Below, piece by piece: positions 48,436-64,000 of a stretch of DNA of 64,000 bases. The DNA is from Melittangium boletus DSM 14713 (GTDB lineage: Bacteria; Myxococcota; Myxococcia; Myxococcales; Myxococcaceae). A model generated the notes under the pieces. It made no database searches. It saw nothing but the letters and a program-made list of their open reading frames with translations, and was not told the origin of the DNA. The stretch spans positions 7,067,765 to 7,131,764 of the forward strand of contig NZ_CP022163.1 of NCBI RefSeq assembly GCF_002305855.1, in the 5' to 3' direction. Position numbers and translations under genes: made by a program. Positions within the stretch are counted from its first letter, which is position 1; each line of letters begins with the position of its first letter.

Positions 48436-51400
48436 ATGGATCTGTCGAACCTCCGCCGACCCGCCGAGCGTGGTGTCTCCGACCGGCCTTTCGCCGAGGT
48501 AGAGGCCTCTCTCGAAAAAGCGGGGCGCGTCGAGGATCTCATCCGTCTCTACGAGGGTCACGCGCGTGAGACGTCCGGCGCCGAGGCGGCGCGTGTGTTG
48601 GTTCGCGCGGGGCAGCTCGCCCAGGAGCGCTTGCGCAATCCGGCTCGCTCCGAGGAACTCCTGCGCCACGCGTTGTTGCTCGCCGAGGACCCGCGCCCCG
48701 CGCTGCTCGGATTGAAGGCCGTTCACGAGTCCCGCCAGGACACGAGCGCGCTCGTCGACGTGTTGGAGCGCCTGGGCGCGCTGAGCCAGGGGGAGGAGGC
48801 CTCGGCCTTCTTCCAGCAAGCGGCGACGTTGCACGAGCAGAAGCTCTTCCGGCGGGATCGCGCCGTGCTGTGTCTGCAGCGCGCGGTGCGCGCGATGCCG
48901 GACCGGGCCATCTTCAAGCGCGCGCGTCAGTTGCTCCTCGTCGAGGAGCGCTTCCAGCCCATCTTCGAATTGCTCGAGCGTGAGCGGACCACGTTGGGCG
49001 GCGACGGGATGGCGGAGGAGTACGCCGCGTTCTGCGAGCGGTTGGTGGAAGATCCCACCGAGCACGCGCTCGCTCAGCGGGCCCTGGCCGTGCTGCGGCA
49101 ACTCGAGCCGGAGAACCCCCGCGCGGAGAAGGTCTCGCAGACGATGCAGCGCTTCGAGCAGACGTGGCGCGATCGCGCCCGCACGCTGCGCGGCATGTCG
49201 CTCGAGGAGCGGGATCGCAAGAGCGCGGCGCGGCTGTCACTGCTGGTGGCCAAGCTGCACGCGTGGTTCGAGCCGGACGTGGCGGAGAAGGTGGAGGAGG
49301 CGCTCGAGCGCTGCTTCCTGCTGTGGCCGGGGATGCCCGATGCCCTCAACCTCATCGAGCGTCTCGCCGAGCGCAAGGGGGACTTCGGTCCGGCCCAGGA
49401 GTGGCTGGAGGGACTGGCCACGGATGCTCGCGAGCGGAGTGTCCAGGCGGAGTTGTGGCTGCGGCTGGGGACCCTGCGCCTCACGCGGCTCAACGACTCG
49501 GCCGGAGCGCTCGCCGCCTTCGAGAAGGCCACGTCCGTGGACCCCTCTCGCGCGGACGTGGCGAGCCTCGGCGCGGAGTTGCTGCTGGAGCAGGAGCGCG
49601 CCGAGGACGCGCTCGCCATGTTGGAGCGCTCCCTGGGCTCGGTGAAGGATCGGGCGACGCAGGTGTCCTTGCGCCTGCGGTTGGCGGAACTCTGCCTGCA
49701 GCTGAGGAATGGGCCCGCGATGCGCGCCCACCTGGAGACGGTGCTCAAGTTGGAGCCCTTCAACGCCCAGGCGGCCTTCCTTCTCGCCCGGCTCCTGGCG
49801 GACCAGGAGGAACTCGCGGCACTGGAGCCCTTGCTGGACCTGGCGATGCTCGCGCCTCGCTCGCGCTCCGAGCGCGTGGCGCTTTGCGAGACGCTGGCGG
49901 CCCTCTACGAGGAGGCGGATGACGCGCGGGGCGCCTTCGAGGTGCTGGCGCGCGCCCTCGCGCTGGAGCCCGCCCGTCCCCTGCTGCTCGAGTCGGTGGT
50001 GGAGAACGCGAACAAGGCGCACGCGGAGCCCGCGCTCGCGACGGCGCTGCGGCGGGCGGCCCTGGTCGCGCTGCCTCCCGAGGCGGCCATTCCGCTCTGG
50101 CGCCACCTCGCCCAGTTGCTGCAGGGGCCGCTGGCGGACCCCGCGGGGGCCGAGGCCGCCTGGAAGGAAGTGCTCGCGCGCGCTCCGGGTGACAGTGCCG
50201 CGCAGGAGGCGGTGCGCGCGCTGCGTGCCGCCGCGGCGATCTCGGCGGATCCCAAGCTGCGCCTGGAGGCCGAGCTGGTCCGGCGCGAGGCCGAGGGCGC
50301 GACGCCCGCCGAGCTGGAGCCGACGGTTCGCGAGCTGGTGAAGCTCGCTCCGGACGACCTGGCCGGTCTGCGGCGTCTGCAGATGGTGTGCGCGGCGGTG
50401 TCGAAGGTCGAGGAGGCCGCGGAGCTGGCCGGACGGCTCGCGAAGCTGGCCGAGACCCAGGTGGAGCGCAGCGACTGGTCCTCGCGTCAGGCGCGCCTCT
50501 TCGCCGAGCGGCTCAACCGCCCGCAGGAGGCCGCGGCCCTCTTCCTCCAGCTCCTCTCGGAGAACGTGTCCACGGGCGTGGTGCTGGGTGGGCTCGAGCG
50601 GCTCATGGCGGCCAAGGTGCGCACGGCGGAGATCGCCGAGGCGCTCGCCCGTCACTATGGCCGTCAGGGAGACCCCCAGCGGCAGGCCTCCGCGCTCCTG
50701 CAGCAGCTCGAGGTCACGACGGACGGGGCGGTGCGGCAGCGGCTGTTCGCCCAGATCGCCAACCTCCAGGAGACGCAACTCGCGGATGGACGCTCGGCGT
50801 TCGACCTGCGCGTGAAGGCGTTGCGCGAGACGCCCACGGACGAGGTGAACCGCGCCGAGCTGGCGCGTCTGGCGCGGGAGCTGTCCGCCCACGCCGAGCT
50901 GGTGCGCGTGTTGCGCGCCCTGGCGGGCGAGACGGAGACTCCGGCGCTCGCCGTTCAACTGCTCTCCGAGACCTCGAAGCTGGCCGAGGAGTCCAACGCC
51001 CTTCCGGAAGCCATTGGCGCGCTGGAGGCGGCGCTGCAGCGGGTGCCCGAATCGTCCGATGTCCTGGGCCGGCTCATCGCCCTGTACACCAAGGCGGGTC
51101 GGGCGGCGGAGGCGGACGCCCTCCTGCGCAAGCGCATCCTGACGGCCACTCGCGCGGAGAAGGTCGAGCTGTTGATGCAGCTCGTGGACCTCAACGCGGG
51201 CCTGGGTCGTCCGCTGCAGGCCGCCGAGGCGCTGCAGTCCGCCATCCAGTCCGGCGCGGACGAGGTGCGCCACCTGCCGCTGCTGGCCGAGCTGTACGAG
51301 AAGGCGGACCGCAAGCCCGAGTGGGGTGAGGTGCTCGCCCGGCAGATCGCGCTCGCGGAGGACGCGGGGGACCTGGACCGGGTGGCGCGCCTGACGCTCA

Positions 51401-54400
51401 AGCGCTCGCAGGTCCTGCAGGACTCCCAGGGAGATCTCACGGACGTGGTGCGCCGCTTCTCGGACATCCTCCGTCAGCGCCCCTCCGACGCGGAGGCCCG
51501 CGCCGAACTCGAGGGAATGCTGGGAGAGGGGGCGTCTCGCGAGGAGGCGGCGCGGGCGCTCATCCCCGCTTACGAGTCCACGAAGGATCACCGCAAGCTG
51601 GTCGCCGCGCTGGAGGTGCTCGCCGAGGTGGCGCGTGAGGACTCCGCGCGCGTGCTGGCGCTGCGCCAGACCGCGCAGGTGTACTTGAGCCAGTTGCGTC
51701 AGCCGGAGCTGGCTTTCGCCTCGCTCGCCCGGGCCCTGCGACTGGCGCCGGGGGATGCCGCGCTGCGCGCCGCCGCGCGTCAGGCCGCCGAGGACGCGGA
51801 CTCGCTGGATGCCTACGCGGAAATCCTCATCGAGCTCACCGAGGAAGGGAGCTCGGACTCCGTTCGCGTGGGTCTGCTGCGCGAGCTGGCCGAGGTCCAG
51901 GAGAAGAAGCTCGACGATCGCGCCGCGGCCTTGAAGTCCCTGCGGGCCCTGTTGGTGCTCGAGCCGGGCAGCCTCGACTGCCTGCGCGCGCTGCAGCGCC
52001 TGCACCGCGCGGGCGAGGAGTGGGCCGCGCTCGCCGAGGTGTTGGAGAAGCTCGCCGCCGCCGCGTCCGAGCCGTCCGAGCAGCTCGCGCACCTGCGAGA
52101 GGCCGCCCTGCTGCATGAGTCGAAGCTCTCCGACTCGGAGAGCGCCGCCAATGCGTGGCGTGTCATCGCCGAGAAGGATCCGCTCCAGCGCGAGGCAGCC
52201 GCTTCCCTGGATCGGCTCTACACGGAGCTGAGCCGCCCGAAGGATCTCGCATGGGCGCTCGGCCTGCGGCGCACGCAGGAAGGGCAGAGCCCCCAGGGCC
52301 GCGAGGTCTCGTTCCGGCTCGCGGAGCTGCTGCGCACCGCGTTGGGAGATCCCCACGCCGCGCTCCAGCTCTACCAGGGCATCCTCTCGGAGGATCCCGG
52401 CCATCCCGGTGCCCGTTCGGCGCTCGAGGAGTGGGTGAAGGCCGCCGTGCCCATGAGCGCGGGCGCGCTGGAGGTGTTGGATCCCGTGCTGGCGCGGCTC
52501 GGAGATCATGCCCGGCGCGTGGCGCTGCGCGAGACGCGTCTGGAGTCCGCGCTCAGCGCGGAGAAGGTCCAGCTCACCGCGGACATCCGCCGCATCTACG
52601 AGCAGGACATGCATCAGCCGTCGCTCGCCTTCATGGCGGCGGTGAAGGCCTTCTCCCAGGGCGTGGAGCGCGAGGCGCTTCGACCCGAGCTGGAACGGCT
52701 CGCGCGGGAGACGGGCTCTCACGAGATGCTGGCCGAGCTGTACGAGGAAGCCGCGCTGGATCTGCCTCGGGGAGACCCGGCGGCGCTCGGCATGTTGCGG
52801 CGCTCCGCGGAACTGCGCGAGCAGATGGGCCAGACGGAGGAGGCCACGGGAGTCTGGAAGCGGGTCCTCGAGGACGCGCCCCAGGATCGCCAGGCACTCG
52901 AGATGCTGTCGCGCCTGTATGAGCGGGGCCAGAACGCCAAGAGCCTGTCCGAGGTCTACGCCGCCCAGTCGGCGCTGGCCACGGAGCCGGAGGCGCGGCG
53001 CGCCCTGTTGGTGAAGGCGGGCGAGGCCTATGCCGCCGCGGGCGACGACGCCAAGGCCATCGAGACGTGGCGCTCGGCGCTGGCCATCCGCAAGGCGGAC
53101 GACGGGTTGCTCGCGCTGGACAAGCTGTTCGCCAAGACGCGGCGCCCGCTGGAGCAGGCGGACGTGTTGGATCAGCTCGCGGAGCTGGCCACGGACAACG
53201 AGTCGCGCCGGGGATTCGTCCTCCGCCGCGCGCAGCTGTTGGAGAAGGAAGGCAGCCACGCCGAGGCGTTGAGCGCCTACCGCGCCCTGATGGGCCTGGC
53301 GCCCGGGGATCCGCAGGCCGTCGCCGGTCTGGAGCGCATGCTTCAGCTCGAGGCGCAGCGGGTGGAGGCGGCTCGGTTGTTGGAGCCCGTCCACCGTGGC
53401 CTCAACGACACGCGCAAGCTGGTGGAGGTGCTCGAGATCCTCCTGCCTGGCACGCAGCCCGCGCTGCGGTTGGAGCGGGTGCAGGAGATCGCCACCTTGC
53501 GTGAGGCGCTGGGACAGACGTCCCTCGCCTTCGCCGCGCGGCTGCGTGCCTTCAATGAGGCTCCGCAGGCCGAGGGTGTGTGCGATGACCTGGAACGGCT
53601 CGCGGCCGACTCAGGCTCCTTCGAGGATGTGGCGGCGGCCTACGAGGATCAGCTCGATCGTGGGAGCACCGAGCCCCTGGCGGGCGATCTCTGGCGGCGG
53701 CTCGCGGCCATCTACGACGGGCGCCTCAAGCGCTACGATCTGGCGGTGCGCGCGTTGGAGGAAGTCAGCCGGCGCGATCCCAAGGACAAGCAGGTGCTGG
53801 AGTCGATCGCCCGCGTGCACCGCCGCACGGGCGCGCATCGGGAGCTGGCGCTGGTGATGCGCCGGCAGGTCGCCGCCGAGCCGTCCGTGCCCGCCCAGGT
53901 GAACCTGCTCTTCGAGCTGGCGCACCTGGCCGAGGAGACGCTTTCCGACAAGGCGCTCGCGGCGCAGACGTACCGCGACGTGTTGGAGCGCCGTCCGGAG
54001 GACGCCAACGCCTTCAAGCTGCTGGGCCGTGTGCTCACGCAGATGGAGCGCTGGCCGGAGCTGGCGCAGCACATCGAGCGGGAGAGCCAACTGGCCGACG
54101 CGCGCAATGCCCTGGAAGAGGGCAGTGATCTGCGCGTGCGCCTGGGCCGTCTCAAGTTCAGCCGCCTGGATGATCCGCGTGGCGCGCTGGAGCTGTACCA
54201 GGAGGTGCTGCGCCGCCGGGCGGGCCATGCCGGAGCGGTGGGTGCCCTGGAGGAGATGGCGCGCTCGGACAGCCCGTTGCGTGGCCAGGCGGCCCTGGCG
54301 CTCGAGCCAGTGTTCGCGGCGGTGGGAGACCACCTCAAGCAGGTGCAGATGCTGGAGTCGCGCGTCTCCGCCGAGCCCGTTCCCCAGGAGCGTTCGGTGC

Positions 54401-57400
54401 TGCTGCGCCGCATCGCGGAGACGTACGCGGGACCGCTGGAGAACGTGGAGATGGCCTTCTTGTCGGCCACCCGCGCGCTGCGCGAGATGCCGGATGATTC
54501 GCGCACGCTCGAACTCTGCCTCTCGCTGGTGGACAAGGCCGGGGCCGCGGAGGAGTTCGCGGCGATTCTGTCCGAGATCGCTCCCCGGGCTGGCGACGCG
54601 GCTCGCTCCGAGTTGTACCGCGCCCTGGCCCGGTTGCAGGCGCGCCTGGGCGAGGACGACGAGGCCCTGGCCTCGTGGCGCAAGGTGCTGACGATCAGCC
54701 CCACGGACACGGAGGCGCTCGACAGCGTGGTGCGGCTGGTGTCCGAGCAGGGCACGCCCCAGGAGTTGCTGGAGGTGCTGCGGCGCCAGCTCGCGAGCGC
54801 CGAGGAGCCCGCCCGCCGGGCGTCGGTGCTGTTGCAGATCGCCGTGCTGCAGGAGGCGGAGCTCCAGGATGGCCTGGGCGCGCTGGCCACCTTGCGGCGC
54901 TTGCTGGACGTGAAGCCGGACGACGCCGCGGCGCTCACGCGGATGGACGGCCTGTGCCAGAAGCTGGAGCGCTGGCCGGAGCTGGCGGACGTGCTCGCCC
55001 GGCGCATCGCGCTCGTGTCGCCCGAGGAGGGACTGGAGCTGAAGTTCCGCCTCGCCGTGGTCCGCGAGACGAAGCTGCTGGACAAGGCGGGCGCGCTGGC
55101 GCTCTACGGCGAAGTGCTCTCCGTGCAGCCGAATCACGCGGGCACGGTGGGCCGCCTGGACGCGATGGTGACCCGCGAGCCGCAGAACCTGCTCGCGGTG
55201 GAGACGCTGCTGCGCGCCTTCCGCGAGAGCGGGGACGCGACGCGGCTCGCCTCGCTCATCGAAACGCGCGTGGGCGTGTCTCCGGACGCGCACGAGCGCA
55301 AGACGCTGCTCGGTGAGTTGGCCACGCTGCGCGAGAGCCAGGGCGAGCCGGAACTCGCCTTCCTGGCGCTCTTCCGCTCCTTCAAGGGGGACCCGAACGA
55401 CCGCGAGCTGCGCGTGCGGCTGGAGAACGCCACGGACGCGGCGGGCTCGTACGACGAGCTGGTGGTGGCCTACGAGGAAGCGCTGCCGCGCGTGGCCGAG
55501 GTGCGGGACGCGGCGGAGATGTGCATCAAGCTGGGCCAGCTCTTCGAGTCGCGGCTGCGCGAGCCCGAGCGCGCCGTCGTCTACTACGAGCGCGCTCGCA
55601 AGCTGGACTCCTCGTCGCAGCACAAGGCGCTGGCCGCGTTGGATCGGCTGTACATCACGCTGGAGGCCTGGGAGGAGCTGGCTCCCGTGCTGGAGGCCCT
55701 CGCCTCCACGGCGGAGCAGACGGCGGACAAGGTGGGCTTCCTCTTCCGCCTGGGTCAGCTCACCCAGGAGAAGCTGCACAGCATGGATCGCGCGGCGTCC
55801 GCGTTCGAGCAGGTGCTGGCGCTGGATGGCGCGCACCTCGCGTCGGCGCGGCTGCTCGAGAGCCTCTACGACTCGGCCGGGGCGCACGACAAGCTGTACA
55901 ACATCCTGAAGCTGCAGTCCGAGCGGGTCACGGGTCCCGAGCGCGAGCGGGTCCTCACGCGCATGGCGCAGGTGTCGGCCGAGGGGCTGGAGGACCTGGG
56001 CGGCGCCATCAACCTGTACCGCGAGCTGCTGGCGAAGAACGCGCGCAACGAGCAGGCGTTCTCCTCGCTGGAGGCGTTGTACGAGCGGGCGGGCCGTCAC
56101 GAGGAGCTGCGCGCGCTGTTGGCGGACCGTCTGGCGCAGACGCTGGATCCGCGCGAGGTGGTGCGGCTCAACGAGCGGCTGGGCCAGGTGTTGTACCGCC
56201 TGCTCAAGCAGCCCGAGGCGGCGGTGAGCTACCTCAAGGCCGCGCTGGAGCGAGACCCCCGGCACCGGGGCGTGCTGGACACGCTGCGTGAGCTGTACGA
56301 GGAGACGGGACCGGCGGAGGAGCTGGTGGGCATCCTGCGGCGGCTCGTGCCGTTGCAGGAGTCGGCCGAGGGCGTGAAGGTCTTGCGCCTGCGGCTGGCC
56401 GAGGTGCTCTCGGGCGTGGGTCGCCGCGAGGAGGCCTTGGACGCGGCCCGCCGCGCGCTGGAAGTGGAGCCCCACGCGGTCGTGGACCTGGAGCGGGTCC
56501 ACACGCTCTTTGTCTCCCTGCGGGCCTACAACGACGCGGTGCGCGCGCTCGAGTTGAAGGTGCAGGTGCACCTGCAAACCGAGGAGCGCGACCAGGCGGT
56601 GGCCACGTGGTTCGCGGTGGCGGACCTCTGGGCGGGCGCGGGCAACAAGCCCGAGCTGGCGGCGGGCGCGTTGGAGAAGGTGCTGGAGCTGGATCCGGCC
56701 CACCGCACCGCCTATGAGCGCGCGTGCGGCCTCTACCGCGCGAACAACGACTGGCGGGCCTACGCGCAGGTGGTGGATCGCTACCTGCCGCACCTCGTCA
56801 CGGAAGAGGAGAAGCTGGCCACCCTCAAGGAGCTGGCGAGGGTGCAGGAGGAGCGCCTGGGCCAGAAGGACGTGGCCTTCCTGGCGCTCTGCCGCGCGCT
56901 GCAGATCGACGCCGCGGACGACACGCTGCGCGAGGAGGTGGAGCGGCTCGCCGACGAGACGGGTTCTCACGAGGAACTCGCCGCCGTCTACGAGGAGGTG
57001 GCGGATGCCCTGCCGCGAGGCCCTCTCGCCGAGCGCATGTACGCCACGCTGGCGCGCGTCCAGGACCTGAAGCTGGATGACGCGCAGGCGGCGGAAGCGG
57101 CGCTGCGGAAGATCCTGGAGTTCGATCCGACGAACGTCACGGCGCTCGACGGACTGGCCGGGATGTTCCAGCGCCGTGGCCGCGAGCGCGAGTACGTGGT
57201 GGCGCTCGAGCAGAAGATCGAGGCCGCGGACTCCATCGAGACGCGCAAGTCCATCCTCCGGGAGATCGCCCGGGTCCAGGACGAGCAGGGCGAGCCGGAC
57301 GAGGCCGCGAGCGCGCTCCTGCGGGCGTTGGAGCTGGAGCCGGACGCCGAGACGCTGGGCGTGCTCACCGCGCTCTATCGTCGCCAGAAGGCCTGGAAGG

Positions 57401-60400
57401 ACGTGGCGGCCACGCTGTTGCGGGCGCGCGACCTGGCGGCCACCGTCGAGGAGCGGGCCCGCATCCAGATCGAGATCGCGAGCGTCTACGAGCGGGACAT
57501 CGGTGATGACGAACCCGCGGTGGTCGCCTACCGGCAGGCGCTCGAGTTCGAGCCCTACAACCTCCAGGCCCTGGAGTCGTTGGAGCGGCTGCACACGCGG
57601 TTGGATCAGCCGGCGGAACTGCTGGCCATCTACGAGCGCATGTTGGAGGTCATCTCCGACTACCGCGAGCGGGTGCGGGTGCTGTTCCGCTCGGCGAGCA
57701 TCTGGGAGGACACGTACCAGAACCCGGCCAACGCGGACGCCTTCATCGAGGGCGTGCTCGCCATCGATCCGCAGAACCTGCAAGCCATCAAGACCCTCAT
57801 CCGCCTGCGCCGCGTGCAGGGGCGGTGGGAGGAGCTGGTGGTCGCCTACGAGCGGCAGCTGCAACTGGCCACGTCGACGCAGGAGCAGGCCGAGCTCTAT
57901 GTGGAGATCGGCAACGTCTACCACCAGCAGCTCAAGCAGGTGGACCGGGCGGTGAACACGTACCACTACGCGCTGGGCATGGATCCAGGCTGCCGGCCCG
58001 CGCTGCATGCGCTCGGCAACCTCTACGAGCGCAGCGGCAACTGGCCCTACGCGCTGGATGTGCTGCAGCAGGAGGCGCAGCTCGCGGGGCACACGCCCGA
58101 GGCGGTGGAGCTGTACTACCGCATGGGACGGATGCACGAGGACATGCTGATGGACACGGGCAGTGCGCGTGCGAGCTATCAGCAGGCCATCGCCATCGAC
58201 CCGGGTCACCTGGCCAGCATCCGAGCCCTCAAGGGCATCCAGGAGCAGGAGAAGGACTGGGGCGGCTACGAGCAGTCCCTGTTGCAGGAGGCACATCAGA
58301 CCGAGGACGCCGAGGCCAAGGCGCGCGCGCTGCTCGAGGTGGCGCGCTACAACGCCGAGACGAAGGGCGATCCGGAGACGGCCACGCAGTACTACGAGGA
58401 GACGCTGCGCTACGCCCCGGACAGCCTGGAGGCGGCTCAGCCCTTGTCGGAGGTCTACAGCGCCCGCGAGGACTGGGTGGCTTGCGAGCGGATGCTCGAC
58501 ATCGTGGTGCGCCGCCTGGCCGAGCGGGCCATCGCGGAGAAGGACACCGGACTGGCCGCGGAGCTGTGCCGTCAGCTCTACCGGTTGGGCTACGTCGCGG
58601 ACAAGATGGGCAACCGGGACAAGGCGCTCGACTCGTACAAGAAGGCCTACGATCTCGATGCCACGTATCTGCCGGTGCTCGAGGGCTACGGCCATCTGCT
58701 CGTGCAGCACGCGAAGCGCTACGAGGACGCGCTGCGCATCTTCCAGACCATCCTCATCCACCACCGGGAGGATCTCACCGACATGGAGGTGGTGGAGGTC
58801 TACTGGCAGCTGGGAGACATCCACGCGAAGCTGAACCAGACGGACCGGGCGCAGAACCACTTCGAGAAGGCGCTCGCGGTGGACTCCAACCATGAGGCCT
58901 CCTTGCGCGCGCTGGTGGCGCTCATGGATGCGTCGGGGCGGTGGGAGCGCGCGGGCGATCTCCGCCAGCAGCTCGCCCAGGTGCTGGAAGGAGAGGCCAA
59001 GGCGCGGGTCTTCCTCGAGCTGGGTCAGCTCTCGCGCGAGAAGTTGAAGGATCCGTATCAGGCCATCGACGCGTACAACGGGGCGCTCAAGCTGCTGCCG
59101 GAATCGCTCGAGGTGCTGGACGCGCTGTACGTGCTGCTGCGCGAGACGCGCCAGGGCCAGAAGGCCGCGGACATGCTGTCGCGCATGTTGCGGTTGCCGG
59201 CGCTGGCGTCCGAGCCAAGCAAGGCCCGGCGGGTGTGGTTCGCGCTCGGAGAGTTGCGCCGGGATGAACTGCGCGACGTGGACGGCGCGGCCGAGGCCTT
59301 CAACACGGCGCTGGACCTGGATCACCGCTTCATCGAGGCCTTCAGCGCGCTCGAGGCGATGCTGGGTGGCGCGGGCCAGTGGAGGGCGCTGGAGGAGAAC
59401 TACGTGAAGATGATCGGGCGCATGCCGAAGACGCCCGACACGCACGGGGCGCGCATGGGCCTGTGGCGGGCGCTGGGCGATCTCTATCGTCAGGTGCTCA
59501 AGAACCAGGAGAACGCGGTGGCGGCCTACGGGCTCGTCGCCAAGGGCCTGCCGGACGATGCCTCCGTGCAGGAGATCTACGCCGAGCTGGCCGCGGCTTC
59601 TCCGGGCAAGGAGGACGAGGCCATCGCGGCGTTGCGCCGTGCCCTCCCGCACACCTCGGATGCGCAAAAGGTGTGCTCGCAACTGGTGCGTCTGTCCGCG
59701 CTGCGCAGGGACTACGATGGTGCGTGGATGGCCGCGCAGGCCGTGGCCGGGCTGCTCGGCGAGGCGGGGGATGACGAGAAGGAGATCCTCTCCAAGCTGG
59801 GGCCCTACGCGAAGCTCAAGGAGGTGGCTCAGCGGCCGCTACCCGATCGCATGTGGCAGTCGCATCTGCTGCATCCCCGGCTTCGCGGGCCCTTCACCGA
59901 GATGATGGGCCTGCTGTTCGAGCAGATCGGGCATCTGTACGCGGTGCCCTTCACGAACTATCAGCTCGTGCCCAAGAAGCACCGCATCGACCTGCCGAGC
60001 TCGCAGGAGTTCCTCGTCCAGCACTACCGGTACGTGGCGCGTCTCTTCGGCATGGACGCGGTGGAGTTGTACTCGCCGCACCTGGTGGCCCGGCGCGAGA
60101 ACATGGCCAAACGCTCCAACGAGCCGACGCCGGATCCTCGCCTCAACCTGGAGGTGCTGCAGACGCACCCCGCGTGCATCCGCGCGGGTGGGCGCTTCTT
60201 CGCCGAGCAGGGGCAGAAGGAGGCGTACTACATGCTGGGCCGGGCGTTCGCGCTGGTGCGGCCGGAACTGGCCTGGAGTCAGCGGCTGGCGCCGGAGCGG
60301 CTCGAGGTGGTGATTCAAGCCGCGCTCAGCCTGGTGGTGCCGAACCTGCGCCTCACGGTGGACCCCCGCGCGGTGGACGCCGAGCGCCGGGGCCTGGAGA

Positions 60401-60705
60401 AGGGCTTCAGCGAGCAGGGCCGCGCGGCGCTGGCGAAGGTGGCTCGAGTCTACGTGCCGGTGGCCACGCCCGCGGATGTCCGCCAGTATTTCGAGTACGT
60501 GGAACTGACGGCGGCGCGCGCGGGCCTCTTCGCCGCGGGTGAGTGCGAGCCCGTCAAGCGCATGGTGTTGGAGGAGACCGGCTCGGCCTTTCGGGTGACG
60601 CCGAAGGCGAAGCTGAGGGAGTTGCTCCTGTTCGCCACGTCCGAGGAGCTGCGCGAGCTGCGTGTCGCGATAGGTACGGACGTGGAGGTTCAGGTGAGAA
60701 AGTAG
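48436..60705 (+). CDS. gltI: Giant cytoplasmic TPR-repeat protein (4089 aa), GltI/AgmK-like
   Basis: An uninterrupted 12.27-kb ORF with host codon usage. About 100 TPR-like units (recurring ...A...Y..AL...P....AL..L..LY...G.W..L... pattern). No signal peptide. Position and size match AgmK in the Glt G1 cluster. Confidence 0.85.
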
Positions 60706-60859
60706 CTGTGCGATGAGGAGTGAGCGTGAGATCCAATCCGGAGTTCGCGCGTTGAACCAGCGACCGGGCGGGCAAGAGCGGCATCCTTGACCCCCCCGGA
60801 CGCCACCTCTACGATTCCAACGGGTTTTCTCCCGTTATTCCTGAGACTTGCGGGGAACG

Positions 60860-62902
60860 ATGCGTTTCGTCTGCGACAGCTGCCGCGCGCAGTATTCGAT
60901 TAGCGACGACAAGGTTGGCGCCAAGGGCGTCAAGGTGCGTTGCAAGAAGTGTGGCCACAACATCGTGGTGCGCTCCGCCGGTTCGGCACCGGCGAAGGAT
61001 GAAGGGACGGCCGGTGAGGCCGCCAGTGGTTCGGCGTCGTCCCAGGGTTCGTCGAACGAGGGCTTCGGCTTGCCGGCGACCTTGGGCACGCCTCCCGAGG
61101 GAGGCATCTTCGGCGGTGTCGAGGATGATGAGATCGGCGCCGTGTTCGACCAGGTGCTCAACTCGGGTTCGCACAAGGTACCTCCGGGCGAAGCGGGGGA
61201 TGGCCCCGCGCAACTGGATGCGTCGGCGGTGTCGGATGCGAGCGACGCGGTGCGCAAGCTCGCGGAGGCCGAGGCGAGCAGCACCAAGCCGGCGACCTCG
61301 CACGAGTGGTTCGTCGCCATCGACGAGAAGCAGGTGGGTCCGCTCACCATGGAGAAGGTGAAGGAGCACTGGGAGAAGGGCGAGGTCGGTCCGGACAGCC
61401 TGTGCTGGCGCGCGGGCTTCAGCGATTGGATTCCGCTTTCCGAGGCCACGGAGCTGGCGTCGGTGCTGGCGCCGCGTCCGACTCGGCCGGTCATCGTGGA
61501 GCCCACGCCCGTGGCGTCGTCTTCGTCGGCGTCTTCGGGCCCGGTGGAGTCCGCGTTCAGCGCGGGTGGCTCGTCGAAGTCCGGCCGGGCCGAAACACCC
61601 GCGCCCGTGGCTCCGTCCGCACAGGACTCGGGCTGGAAGCCCTCGGCGGCGAGCGTGCTGGCCTCGTTGGTGAAGGAGGAGAACGAGGCGCTGTCGAAGC
61701 CCGCGGCCAAGTCTTCCGTGTCCGAGGAAAAGGCGAAGCCCGCCTCCTCGGGGTTGCTCGATGTGCCGCCGCCTGACGCGGGTGCGGCCAAGAGCCCGTT
61801 GTTGGCGGAGACGCCGGCTCCCGCGCCGTACATGCAGCCGGCTCCGGCGCCAGGCTACGCGCCACCCGCGCCCCAGGGCTATCCGCAGCAGCCCATGCCT
61901 CAGCAGTACGCGCCGCCCCAGGGCTACGCTCCGCCTCCGGCCTATCCCGGCTATCCGCCCCAGGCGGCGCCCAAGCAGGGGGGGAAGACGGGGATGGTGA
62001 TTGGCATCGCGGCGGGCGCGCTGTTGATGATTGGCGGCGTTGGCTTCTTCCTGGCGTCTCGTCCTTCGGACCCGCCTCCCACGCCCCAGCCCGTGGCCCA
62101 GGCTCCAGCGCCCGCTCCGGTGAAGCCCGCGGAGGTGCCCGCGACCCCTCCGCCCACTGCGGTGGCCACCGCGCCGACTCCTGCCCCAGCTCCGGCGGGA
62201 ACGCCACCAACGCCCGCGGCCACCGCGCCCGCGACGGCACCCTCCACGCCCCCGGCGGTGGCGGCCGTGGCGACGCCTCCTCCGGCGACGCCTCCGCCCG
62301 CCAGCGAGCCGGTGAAGCCCGCCGAGGAGCCCAAGGCTCCGCCGCAGCAGGTGGCTCGCGCGGAGCTCCCGGATCGAAGTGGCTCCAAGCGAGGTTCTTC
62401 GCCGAGCCGTTCTTCGTCTTCGCGGGGTTCGAGCGACGACGACGCCGAGGAGATCTCGGCGCGCTCCAAGCCCGCGGCGAAGAGCAGCGGGGGAGGGAAC
62501 GCGGATGACGAATTCGATGAGCTGTTTGGCACGAAGAAGGCCAGTGCCAAGAGTGGCGGGTCAGCGAATGGCCGTACGGCCTACATTCCGCCCGAGCCTG
62601 GCGGAGGTGGCGCCACGGTCGAACGCCTCGGGCAGTCGGACATCATGCAGGTGGTGCTGAGCAACAAGCCCGCCATCGTGAAGTGTGTGGGTGAGCAGAA
62701 GAAGAAGGACCCGGGCCTGAGCGGCAAGCTGGTGATGCGCTGGACGATCCAGACCAACGGCAAGACGAAGAACGTGTCCTGCCAGACAGGTGAGTTCCGC
62801 TCGACTTACATGGCTTCCTGCATCTCCGGGTTGATCAAGGGATGGAACTTCCCGAAGCACAAGGTCGAGGGGGATCCCATCGATTTCCCGTTTACGTTCT
62901 AA
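60860..62902 (+). CDS. gltJ: Zinc-ribbon / GYF-like / proline-rich / TM / AgmX-C-terminal domain protein, GltJ/AgmX-like
   Basis: N-terminal MJ0042-type zinc ribbon (MRFVCDSCRAQYSISDDKVGAKGVKVRCKKCGHNIVV). GYF-like domain (WFVAIDEKQVGPLTMEKVKEHWEKGEVGPDSLCWRAGFSDWIPL). Pro-rich low complexity. TM helix (MVIGIAAGALLMIGGVGFFLA). C-terminal domain paralogous to that of the gltG-like protein. ATG at 60860; the ORF track starts at a TTG at 60848. Confidence 0.8.
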   Translation: MRFVCDSCRAQYSISDDKVGAKGVKVRCKKCGHNIVVRSAGSAPAKDEGTAGEAASGSASSQGSSNEGFGLPATLGTPPEGGIFGGVEDDEIGAVFDQVLNSGSHKVPPGEAGDGPAQLDASAVSDASDAVRKLAEAEASSTKPATSHEWFVAIDEKQVGPLTMEKVKEHWEKGEVGPDSLCWRAGFSDWIPLSEATELASVLAPRPTRPVIVEPTPVASSSSASSGPVESAFSAGGSSKSGRAETPAPVAPSAQDSGWKPSAASVLASLVKEENEALSKPAAKSSVSEEKAKPASSGLLDVPPPDAGAAKSPLLAETPAPAPYMQPAPAPGYAPPAPQGYPQQPMPQQYAPPQGYAPPPAYPGYPPQAAPKQGGKTGMVIGIAAGALLMIGGVGFFLASRPSDPPPTPQPVAQAPAPAPVKPAEVPATPPPTAVATAPTPAPAPAGTPPTPAATAPATAPSTPPAVAAVATPPPATPPPASEPVKPAEEPKAPPQQVARAELPDRSGSKRGSSPSRSSSSRGSSDDDAEEISARSKPAAKSSGGGNADDEFDELFGTKKASAKSGGSANGRTAYIPPEPGGGGATVERLGQSDIMQVVLSNKPAIVKCVGEQKKKDPGLSGKLVMRWTIQTNGKTKNVSCQTGEFRSTYMASCISGLIKGWNFPKHKVEGDPIDFPFTF

Positions 62903-62911
62903 CAACCCATT

Positions 62912-62963
62912 CAAGGGGAACAGTCACGTACGACACAGATATCTCGTACGGCTGTTCCTCTTG
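62912..62963 (+). terminator. Imperfect long hairpin downstream of the gltJ-like gene, with no U-tract
   Basis: CAAGGGGAACAG ... CTGTTCCTCTTG (11 of 12 bp) enclosing the inner ACGTACGA / TCGTACGG arms. It starts 10 nt after the stop. Confidence 0.35.
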
Positions 62964-63124
62964 AGGGGAGTGAATGTCCCTCTGGACGGAGCGTCGGAAT
63001 CGCGTGTCGACAATCGTTGACACGCCTGGAGTGGCGGGACTAAGCCCCGCGCTGCAGGACGAGGGGGCCTTGAGAGGCCGGCGGCCCGCCTCACGCGATG
63101 TATCCCTTCAGGAGGAAGCCGAGA

Positions 63125-64000
63125 ATGCAGCTTCGGAAGATGACGTTGATGTTCGCCGCGCTGAGCGCGGTGAGCCTGATGATGGCGTGTGATGGTGGTG
63201 GTCGTGACACCTTGGCGTGTGCGTCGGATACGGACTGCCTTGAGTCCGAGATCTGCCACCCGCAGGCTGGCGTCTGTGTGCAGACCTGTTCGAGCGCGGC
63301 GGATTGTCCCGACTCCGCGAAGACGTGCGATCCCTTGAGCGGCACGAGCAACTCTATCTGCAAGTGCAAGACGGATGAGCTGTGCCAGGGTGACACGCGT
63401 TTGTCTGACGCCTCGGGCCTGTCGTGCTCGACGACGTACAGCGTGTGCACGGATCAGACGGCCACGAAGTGCACGTCGAATGCGCAGTGCGCCGCGAACC
63501 AGACCTGCAACACGACGACGGGTGCTTGCGAGGATCGTCCCGCTGAGGGCGCCGCCTGCTCTGGTCAGGGGCAGACGACTTGCGCCTACGGTCAGTTCTG
63601 CAGCAGCAGCAAGTGTGCGGCCGTGCCTGCTCCTACCTGTCAGAACTATACGAATTTCACTAGGCGCAGTGAATTGGGAACGACTGGTCCCATCATTTTC
63701 AATGCGTCTGTAGTGAGCGCAGCAACTGATTCGTTCTGTGGCAGCGGCACAAACACAAAGCGCGTGAAGGTCAATGTCTCCGCTTATTCCAGCACTCCCT
63801 TTCCTCAGACGAAGAATGAACTGAACGGCCTGTTCTATGTTCAGGTTGCTGGAACTAGGTTGGATGGGGCCGACACCATCAGCTCTTCAGCTGGGAACTA
63901 CACCGTGACTGGTTCCAACCGAGAGCGCGCTGATTTCGTCATGAGCTTTTGTGTGGCGCCGTCTAGCGATACCCTGTCTTTGGGGGTGTATTTCACGGGT
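63125..64000 (+). CDS. Cys-rich secreted lipoprotein (partial; continues past the window end) with a sharp GC drop in its distal part
   Basis: ATG at 63125 with GGAGGAAG 8 nt upstream. Lipobox LSAVSLMMACDG. About 25 Cys residues in C-x-DC / C-x-TC spacings (ACASDTDCLESEICHPQAGVCVQTCSSAADCPDSAKTCDP...). Open in frame for 292 codons to the window end. Not in the ORF track because there is no stop codon. Confidence 0.7.
   Translation, partial: MQLRKMTLMFAALSAVSLMMACDGGGRDTLACASDTDCLESEICHPQAGVCVQTCSSAADCPDSAKTCDPLSGTSNSICKCKTDELCQGDTRLSDASGLSCSTTYSVCTDQTATKCTSNAQCAANQTCNTTTGACEDRPAEGAACSGQGQTTCAYGQFCSSSKCAAVPAPTCQNYTNFTRRSELGTTGPIIFNASVVSAATDSFCGSGTNTKRVKVNVSAYSSTPFPQTKNELNGLFYVQVAGTRLDGADTISSSAGNYTVTGSNRERADFVMSFCVAPSSDTLSLGVYFTG

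Follow-up and report, generated by a model that had tools for sequence, protein, structure and literature searches.

The gene that closes a 64,000-nucleotide (nt) stretch of Melittangium boletus DSM 14713 (NZ_CP022163.1), directly 3' of the gliding gene gltJ, encodes a lipoprotein with a probably exchangeable C-terminal head. The whole stretch is called the window, and coordinates are window positions. The product is a predicted outer-membrane lipoprotein of three parts: lipid anchor, disulfide-rich stalk and immunoglobulin-like (Ig-like) head. At least six discrete head sequence types occupy this one locus in myxobacteria; further types occur in distant metagenome-assembled genomes (MAGs). 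The head and the small MORN gene 3' of it are very likely replaced together, as a cassette. The favoured overall reading, rated as probable, is an outer-membrane lipoprotein with an exchangeable head and MORN cassette that displays a binding or recognition head with a periplasmic partner. Inside the gene, G + C content (GC) and G + C content at third codon positions (GC3) fall sharply. With this step, at the cassette junction, begins an old low-GC3 block of ~5–6 kb that is specific to the clade.

The open reading frame (ORF) begins with ATG at 63125 and stays open through the window end at 64000 (292 codons read). Its translation is 100% identical to the NCBI protein of Melittangium boletus DSM 14713, 302 amino acids (aa), which UniRef names 'Lipoprotein'. 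The last 10 residues (GNFFCYQADY) and the stop lie past position 64000, and the C-terminus reads ...GGNFFCYQADY at residue 302. The gene has the following parts.

63110–63116, plus strand: Shine-Dalgarno-like AGGAGGA, 8 nt 5' of the ATG, read directly from the sequence.
63125–63190, plus strand: signal peptide and lipobox (MQLRKMTLMFAALSAVSLMMA followed by C; ...SLMMA followed by C), from the translation; predicted lipidated residue Cys22.
63191–63625, plus strand: Cys-rich stalk, codons 23–167, with ~22 Cys in small beta-hairpin modules; GC 0.635, GC3 0.80.
63614–63640, plus strand: stalk/head junction AAVPAPTCQ, 5' boundary of the exchanged cassette and GC3 change point.
63626–64000, plus strand: Ig-like beta-sandwich head of type A, codons 168–292 of 302; GC 0.52, GC3 0.58.

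M1, Q2, R4 and C22 are invariant in an alignment of 31 homologues, as are P170, T171, C172 and N174 at the junction (PAPTC motif). The N-terminal part of the 302-aa protein is a Cys-rich stalk of 145 aa. Its Cys columns are invariant and its composition tracks the species background. The head is C-terminal, ~135 aa in length, begins at the invariant motif PAPTC and is rich in N, S, T, Y, F and K. An AlphaFold2 model (109-sequence alignment) has a mean predicted local distance difference test score (pLDDT) of 88.6, with 93–98 in the head and 75–97 in the stalk. As modelled, the stalk is a chain of small disulfide-stabilised hairpins and the C-terminal domain a beta-sandwich, predicted to be a generic Ig-like fold without toxin or enzyme relatives. 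No family of Pfam, NCBIfam or PADLOC is matched by the lipoprotein. The head-domain profile has no match among PDB sequences, and Foldseek gives none at E < 0.001.

A first reading of the window, the original prediction, had placed a Cys-rich lipoprotein gene directly 3' of the glt cluster. This is confirmed, the upstream ORF being GltJ (NF033761, E 6e-261). The distal AT-rich frame was taken for real coding and is so: 191 homologues conserve it, head dN/dS (nonsynonymous over synonymous substitution rates) is low, and head peptides are recorded for the Myxococcus xanthus orthologue. The proposed polymorphic C-terminal module, swapped on a Cys-rich stalk, is found across the family, with its junction at the position of the GC step. 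Variation of the C-terminal part between related loci is seen both in five close pairs and as discrete types. A MYXO-CTERM or other sorting signal, suggested as something to look for past the window end, is absent there; the protein stops 10 residues on.

A one-genome-per-species scan yields 72 loci with the lipoprotein gene. In 67 of these gltJ ends ~230 nt 5' of it, and most also carry the gltI 3' end farther upstream. Across Archangiaceae and Myxococcaceae the lipoprotein gene has a fixed place beside gltJ, where the G1 gliding cluster ends on its 3' side; the synteny is strict even in distant MAGs. On the 3' side the conserved order in relatives is MORN_2 gene, TIGR04552 gene (protein of 366 aa, E 2e-122, RelA/SpoT-like), a variable zone with an opposite-strand Big_5/BNR lipoprotein gene, and ffh. 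The head types and their hosts are listed below.

Type A, that of the window and the commonest: Melittangium, Archangium, Vitiosangium, Hyalangium, Corallococcus, Pyxidicoccus, Myxococcus and others.
Type B: Archangium, Corallococcus, Myxococcus, Stigmatella.
Type C: Myxococcus; C. macrosporus HW-1.
Type D: M. vastator; C. sicarius.
Type E: A. minus; Cystobacter; M. dinghuensis.
Type F, very divergent: two Archangium MAGs.

Head type is incongruent with taxonomy and differs between strains bearing one species name. Strains of M. xanthus carry type A or C; C. macrosporus DSM 14697 carries A and HW-1 carries C (source names). A single type recurs between genera at 65–82% identity, and the window head is 75–78% identical to Archangium heads. 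In close genome pairs the flanking DNA is 90–100% identical and the head protein 28–49%. Protein identities in selected pairs of loci are as follows.

L014/L045: TIGR04552 93%, stalk 89%, head 36%.
L023/L031 (both named C. exercitus): TIGR04552 97%, stalk 86%, head 41%.
L004/L027 (both named A. gephyra): TIGR04552 98%, stalk 76%, head 49%.
L035 (Myxococcus)/L045 (Corallococcus): TIGR04552 78%, stalk 49%, head 82%.

The edges of the exchanged segment are seen in the DNA of five close pairs. Identity is 90–100% over the gltJ tail, the spacer and the first 430–500 nt of the lipoprotein gene, and then falls abruptly to 35–55%. It is back to 85–95% only at ~+1440 to +1700, inside or after the MORN gene. 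In the pair L011/L022 an identity of 60–80% runs on through TIGR04552; the 3' edge of the cassette is therefore variable and the 5' edge fixed. By junction nucleotide alignment, the 5' breakpoints lie between the last Cys module (CSGEG..TC.YG..C) and PAPTC, at the site of the window's GC3 change point. Among 1.84 billion representative proteins the head profile finds 160 at E <= 0.001, always with the head in C-terminal position; head-bearing proteins reach ~500 aa (some matches are fragments).

Atypical heads occur at a few loci. In the MAG locus L042 (6500–6750) the head region is frameshifted and of low complexity after ...CAAVPC, a disrupted allele or an assembly error. The only extra head copies lie in three Corallococcus loci (L023 8933–9607, minus strand; L028; L046), as complete genes for a further lipoprotein of 224 aa, composed of a short Cys linker and a divergent head; this gene is convergent with TIGR04552 and is not accompanied by a second MORN gene. 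Elsewhere in genomes, paralogues of the lipoprotein (P0098, P0035, L065) have neither gltJ nor MORN neighbours.

The MORN protein in relatives is 160–190 aa in length; it carries a signal peptide that is cleavable, and it contains MORN_2 repeats (PF07661, E 1.2e-15). PF07661 scores 56.2 bits at L004 7124–7624 (cutoff 29.6); matches to MORN_2 in L073–L076, contigs of Melittangium-like metagenome relatives, are faint. No YwqK-family match is found for the protein in NCBIfam. Each locus has one MORN gene, and neither orphan head or MORN cassettes nor immunity arrays are found at the loci. MORN identity is 38% in L014/L045 and 47% in L023/L031, despite 93–97% in TIGR04552. With TIGR04552 regressed out, head and MORN identity remain correlated (partial Mantel r = 0.75; 0 of 2000 permutations reached this value), and stalk and head, by the same measure, give r = 0.09. 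Two gltJ-linked type F loci are without MORN: a strong intrinsic terminator is followed directly by TIGR04552 (L049 6864–7010; L050 6852–7030).

Selection was measured in 13 pairs of related loci, the two heads of a pair being of the same type. Within its type the head evolves under purifying selection: dN/dS is 0.06–0.26 in 11 pairs, 0.37 and 0.43 in the other two. Stalk dN/dS is 0.23–0.69. In 10 of the 13 pairs synonymous divergence (dS) is higher in the head than in the stalk, for example 0.53 against 0.13 in L013/L014. Purifying selection within types together with higher head dS is consistent with old allelic classes under balancing selection that are moved by recombination; neither a continuous arms race nor differential paralogue loss fits this combination. 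Differential loss of tandem paralogues is also rejected on genomic grounds, as no genome has tandem head and MORN duplicates and the flanks are 90–100% identical across the switch.

The orthologue in M. xanthus DK1622 is MXAN_4860, annotated only as hypothetical. Two head peptides, ADLGTTGPIIYK and DFPNKADLGTTGPIIYK, were assigned to it in vesicle fractions by Berleman et al. (PMC4158809 supplement). The same paper counts MXAN_4860 among the abundant proteins of vesicles, with a 3.7-fold enrichment relative to the outer membrane (PMC4158809). Published literature on MXAN_4861/4860/4859, on gltJ-downstream genes and on polymorphic loci contains no description of the cassette that could be found.

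The proposed course of events is as follows. Homologous recombination, with the conserved flanks as anchors, would exchange the segment of head plus MORN gene in one piece, and the GC and GC3 step at 63626 would be the 5' edge of the exchanged cassette in the window. Balancing (frequency-dependent) selection would retain the old allelic classes. The head would be a recognition or binding module specific to its type, displayed by the stalk on outer-membrane vesicles or in the outer membrane itself. The periplasmic MORN protein may be the cognate binding partner of the head: holder, masking factor or neutraliser. Recognition or binding with a cognate partner is a serious but tentative candidate for the function of the head. 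The functional readings weighed here overlap. Together the data suggest an undescribed recognition or antagonism locus.

Several points weigh against this reading. Binding between head and MORN protein is proposed from their co-inheritance only, and linkage in one recombination tract would give the same pattern. The observed location is that of the orthologue, in vesicle fractions; the head at the cell surface is a proposal. No motility phenotype is on record for MXAN_4860 in the literature searched. The same-name loci of A. gephyra and C. exercitus are separate GTDB species representatives, so strict within-species polymorphism rests on source names. The MORN and TIGR04552 genes of M. boletus lie past the window end and are deduced from the Melittangium-like contigs L073–L076. 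In those relatives low GC3 also spans the conserved TIGR04552 gene, so the composition signal is not specific to the cassette.

Myxobacteria are a main model for bacterial kin recognition and cooperative motility. Their known polymorphic determinants are TraA, the SitA toxins, and type VI secretion system (T6SS) and Rhs effectors. To these, a polymorphic cassette of two genes, present in single copy and fixed in the chromosome where the gliding cluster ends, would add a candidate identity or antagonism locus. Alternatively, it could be a phage-receptor locus. The locus also offers a natural example of long-lived allelic classes, spread across genera and kept by recombination at a defined junction motif. 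Three features deserve note: the gene has a fixed, single-copy place at the gliding cluster's end, the alleles are common to several genera, and the product is an abundant but uncharacterised vesicle protein.

TraA is an envelope protein of the same organisms, in which a Cys-rich repeat 'stalk' is proposed to display the polymorphic recognition domain (PMC6372800). The two proteins appear to share the logic of anchor, stalk and variable head, and both have allelic types that are incongruent with taxonomy. They are built in opposite polarity: in TraA the variable domain is PA14-like and N-terminal and the anchor is a C-terminal MYXO-CTERM, whereas the window protein is anchored by a lipid at its N-terminus and carries its Ig-like head at the C-terminus. 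The partner differs as well: a small secreted MORN protein co-varies with the head, whereas TraB does not set specificity. PA14 has no Pfam match in the window lipoprotein at E up to 1. TIGR04201 (Myxo_Cys_RPT) is matched below threshold in two orthologues only (E 0.005–0.009) and not in the window protein; beyond these Cys-repeat matches there is no sequence homology with TraA. Membership of the TraA family is rejected, as PA14 domain, MYXO-CTERM and traB partner are lacking.

SitA loci are multi-copy and often lie on Mx-alpha-like elements; the present locus is single-copy and fixed beside gltJ. The present system and SitA/SitI have several features in common: a lipobox lipoprotein, conserved in its N-terminal part and polymorphic in a C-terminal module; a cognate gene directly downstream; and the character of outer-membrane cargo. 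SitA proteins combine family-specific escort domains, ~375 aa in length, with C-terminal nucleases whose site of action is the cytoplasm (PMC8546572). By that published description they are set apart from a 145-aa Cys-rich stalk with an Ig-like head, and the MORN partner bears a signal peptide. Membership of the SitA family is likewise rejected: the 375-aa escort domain, a nuclease domain and a cytoplasmic immunity protein are all lacking.

In CdiA the junction motif is VENN. The adjacent Proteus mirabilis genes idsD and idsE have co-varying variable regions, and type-specific binding between the products, IdsD and IdsE, encodes strain identity; these are T6SS-delivered membrane proteins, without homology to the present ones and without a lipoprotein or MORN component. 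A sharp junction at a conserved motif, here PAPTC, recalls CdiA-CT/CdiI, Rhs and LXG systems (PMC3482391; Zhang et al. 2012). As in polymorphic toxin systems, a variable C-terminal domain is co-inherited with a variable 3' gene, and recombination gives a patchy taxonomic spread. Unlike in those systems, there is no recognisable toxin fold, no secretion-system trafficking domain and no orphan cassette, and the head types are homologous variants of one fold, not unrelated toxin domains. By analogy, the locus would belong with polymorphic C-terminal cassette systems and polymorphic recognition receptors.

A different function is possible but unlikely, namely that of a structural envelope or gliding accessory protein whose exposed head is diversified by phages, predators or bacteriocins, with the MORN protein as a co-adapting structural partner. 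Strict synteny with gltI and gltJ, distant MAGs included, agrees with it, and so do long-lived allelic classes under purifying selection, which are typical of receptor polymorphisms. Transposon mutants of MXAN_4858, the TIGR04552 gene of M. xanthus, resemble glt mutants in development (bioRxiv 10.64898/2026.08.28.747804), a further point for this function. Against it, the G1 cluster is genetically defined as MXAN_4870–4862 (PMC3169522), and MXAN_4860 lies outside this set. The window head also has no relative among the viral contigs of IMG/VR, so no phage-encoded form of it is found.

MORN_2 proteins of the YwqK kind are antitoxins to LXG toxins in Bacillus. A periplasm-acting polymorphic toxin, with a toxic or inhibitory head that reaches neighbours via outer-membrane exchange or vesicles and a MORN protein that serves as non-transferred, type-specific immunity, is considered improbable, although the hallmark arrangement is present: conserved N-terminal part, variable C-terminal domain delimited by a sharp junction at a conserved motif, and co-varying small gene directly 3'. 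The abundance of the lipoprotein in outer-membrane vesicles, a signal peptide that puts the MORN partner in the compartment faced by an outer-membrane lipoprotein, the YwqK precedent, and type F loci that lack both the typical head and the MORN gene all count for such a toxin. The head itself counts against it, being a 135-aa Ig-like domain without catalytic or pore-forming relatives (PDB, Foldseek, Pfam, NCBIfam, PADLOC) and never found on Rhs, CdiA, LXG or other delivery scaffolds among the 1.84 billion representative proteins. So do the lack of orphan head or MORN cassettes and of immunity arrays, the chromosomal, single-copy, syntenic position outside mobile elements, and a MORN protein without a YwqK-family match in NCBIfam.

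A further reading is speculative and rated unlikely: head and MORN protein as an unrecognised self/non-self determinant tied to the gliding machinery. The head would be transferred between cells by outer-membrane exchange or vesicles and would bind an envelope target of the recipient, perhaps one of the Glt components. Only cells with the matching MORN protein in their periplasm would escape harm. If so, head type would decide which neighbours move or survive together, and the system would amount to a second TraA-like greenbeard, or to a counterpart of SitA/SitI that works by binding and not by enzymatic activity.

The maximum-likelihood change point of GC3 is codon 167 (63626), with a fall from 0.80 to 0.58 (1 of 2000 permutations as extreme). 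For all bases it is 63634, with GC 0.637 before and 0.518 after (28 of 2000 as extreme). A split at 63634/63635 gives GC 0.635 against 0.519 and GC3 0.79 against 0.59. Nowhere else in the 64 kb does a 375-nt stretch have as little GC as the final one, at 0.523; the mean is 0.690 and the standard deviation 0.035. The compositional step is real and sharp, beyond chance. The abrupt switch that was originally predicted thus stands, with its edge at 63626, but its magnitudes were overstated: the proximal part has 63.5% GC instead of ~70% (distal 52%, predicted ~50%), and its GC3 is 0.79–0.80 instead of near 90%. This stalk-side GC3 is already under that of the neighbours gltI (0.92) and gltJ (0.83). 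Recoding with gltI codon usage gives an expected change in GC from 0.678 to 0.647; amino-acid composition therefore explains ~3 of the 11 GC points, and the remainder is codon choice.

The same step is seen in three Melittangium-like metagenome relatives, at protein identities of 84%, 77% and 74%. Their heads, which differ by 12–23% in protein, have GC 0.52–0.56 and GC3 0.64–0.76, against a stalk GC3 of 0.80–0.88. Third-position identity to the window, counted in codons with an identical amino acid, is 0.55–0.74. In two Melittangium-like relatives low GC3 runs on through MORN (0.56–0.57), TIGR04552 (0.48) and the Big_5 lipoprotein gene (0.61); ffh is back to 0.93. Because the block also spans MORN and the conserved TIGR04552 there, it is regional and old. 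A long and ancient replacement tract, derived from a donor of lower GC, could explain the block, as could a local relaxation of codon usage. The TIGR04552 proteins of these relatives are ~81% identical to Archangium, as vertical descent predicts. The TIGR04552 GC3 of 0.48 (L073 1695–2792; L074 2705–3871) compares with 0.83 in Archangium. Just 3' of the gene lie mobile-element remnants, an ISL3 transposase fragment and a DUF6444 gene (L073 2943–3299; L074 4230–4682), which border the far side of the lowest-GC3 stretch. For genome scanning, an intragenic GC3 step can mark a cassette boundary although the copy at hand is no recent import.

Recent horizontal acquisition of the C-terminal module by the M. 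boletus genome, the origin first predicted, is largely refuted and now very improbable. The abrupt GC3 step at codon 167, a family that does exchange its head segment, and the ISL3 fragment and DUF6444 gene a few kb downstream in relatives would suit it. The low GC is however shared by the three relatives, whose heads and third positions have diverged from the window to the extent given above; the low-GC3 block takes in TIGR04552 genes that are ~81% identical to Archangium; and the window head is of type A, the commonest, as in the nearest genera. An artefact, be it an assembly join at ~63.64 kb or a plain effect of amino-acid composition, can practically be dismissed, for although the head is rich in N, S, T, Y, F and K and a modest GC dip from stalk to head is general (0.666 to 0.616 in 41 loci), more than 70 independent assemblies, as well as the NCBI protein, show the same junction and frame, which excludes the assembly chimera, and composition predicts a dip of ~3 points against 11 observed, while mean GC3 in most other genera scarcely falls, from 0.88 to only 0.85.

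The genes and spacer elements 5' of the lipoprotein gene are as follows.

48436–60705, plus strand: ORF of a gltI-like giant TPR protein, 4089 aa; context of the G1 gliding cluster.
60848–62902, plus strand: gltJ, NCBIfam NF033761 (E 5.9e-261; 868 bits, cutoff 450), with Pfam Zn_ribbon_4 and GYF_2.
62908–62967, plus strand: long near-perfect hairpin directly 3' of the gltJ stop; 13-nt arms at 62911–62923 and 62952–62964, 92% complementary, plus inner pairing.
63002–63025, no strand assigned: palindrome GCGTGTCGAC-n4-GTTGACACGC, 90% complementary, in the spacer ~100 nt 5' of the lipoprotein start codon.

Related loci likewise have the C-terminal 756 aa of the gltI-like protein 5' of gltJ; the published GltI/AgmK is a TPR protein of 4132 aa (PMC3169522). 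The last recognised gene of the G1 cluster is gltJ. Rfam gives only sub-threshold hairpin (miRNA-model) matches on spacer and gene. A promoter scan of the spacer 5' of the lipoprotein gene finds no sigma-70-like site. From its sequence, the hairpin might serve as a terminator, or as a processing element, between gltJ and the lipoprotein gene, and the palindrome is a candidate binding site for a regulator. At the gltJ 3' end (62500–62900, TonB-C-like domain) GC falls to 0.58–0.63 and GC3 stays at 0.72–0.92. This dip is driven by amino-acid composition, unlike the codon-driven dip in the lipoprotein head.

A second hypervariable zone follows right after TIGR04552 (L004 8835–11100; ~+2750 from the lipoprotein start in all close pairs). 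DNA identity between close genomes drops there to 25–70%, and a minus-strand Big_5/BNR lipoprotein gene with GC3 0.61–0.70 lies in it, before ffh. The assemblies titled 'Comamonas sp. KCTC 72670' (L015) and 'Longimicrobium sp.' (L037, a MAG) hold the myxobacterial gltJ-lipoprotein locus and are probably mislabelled or contaminated.

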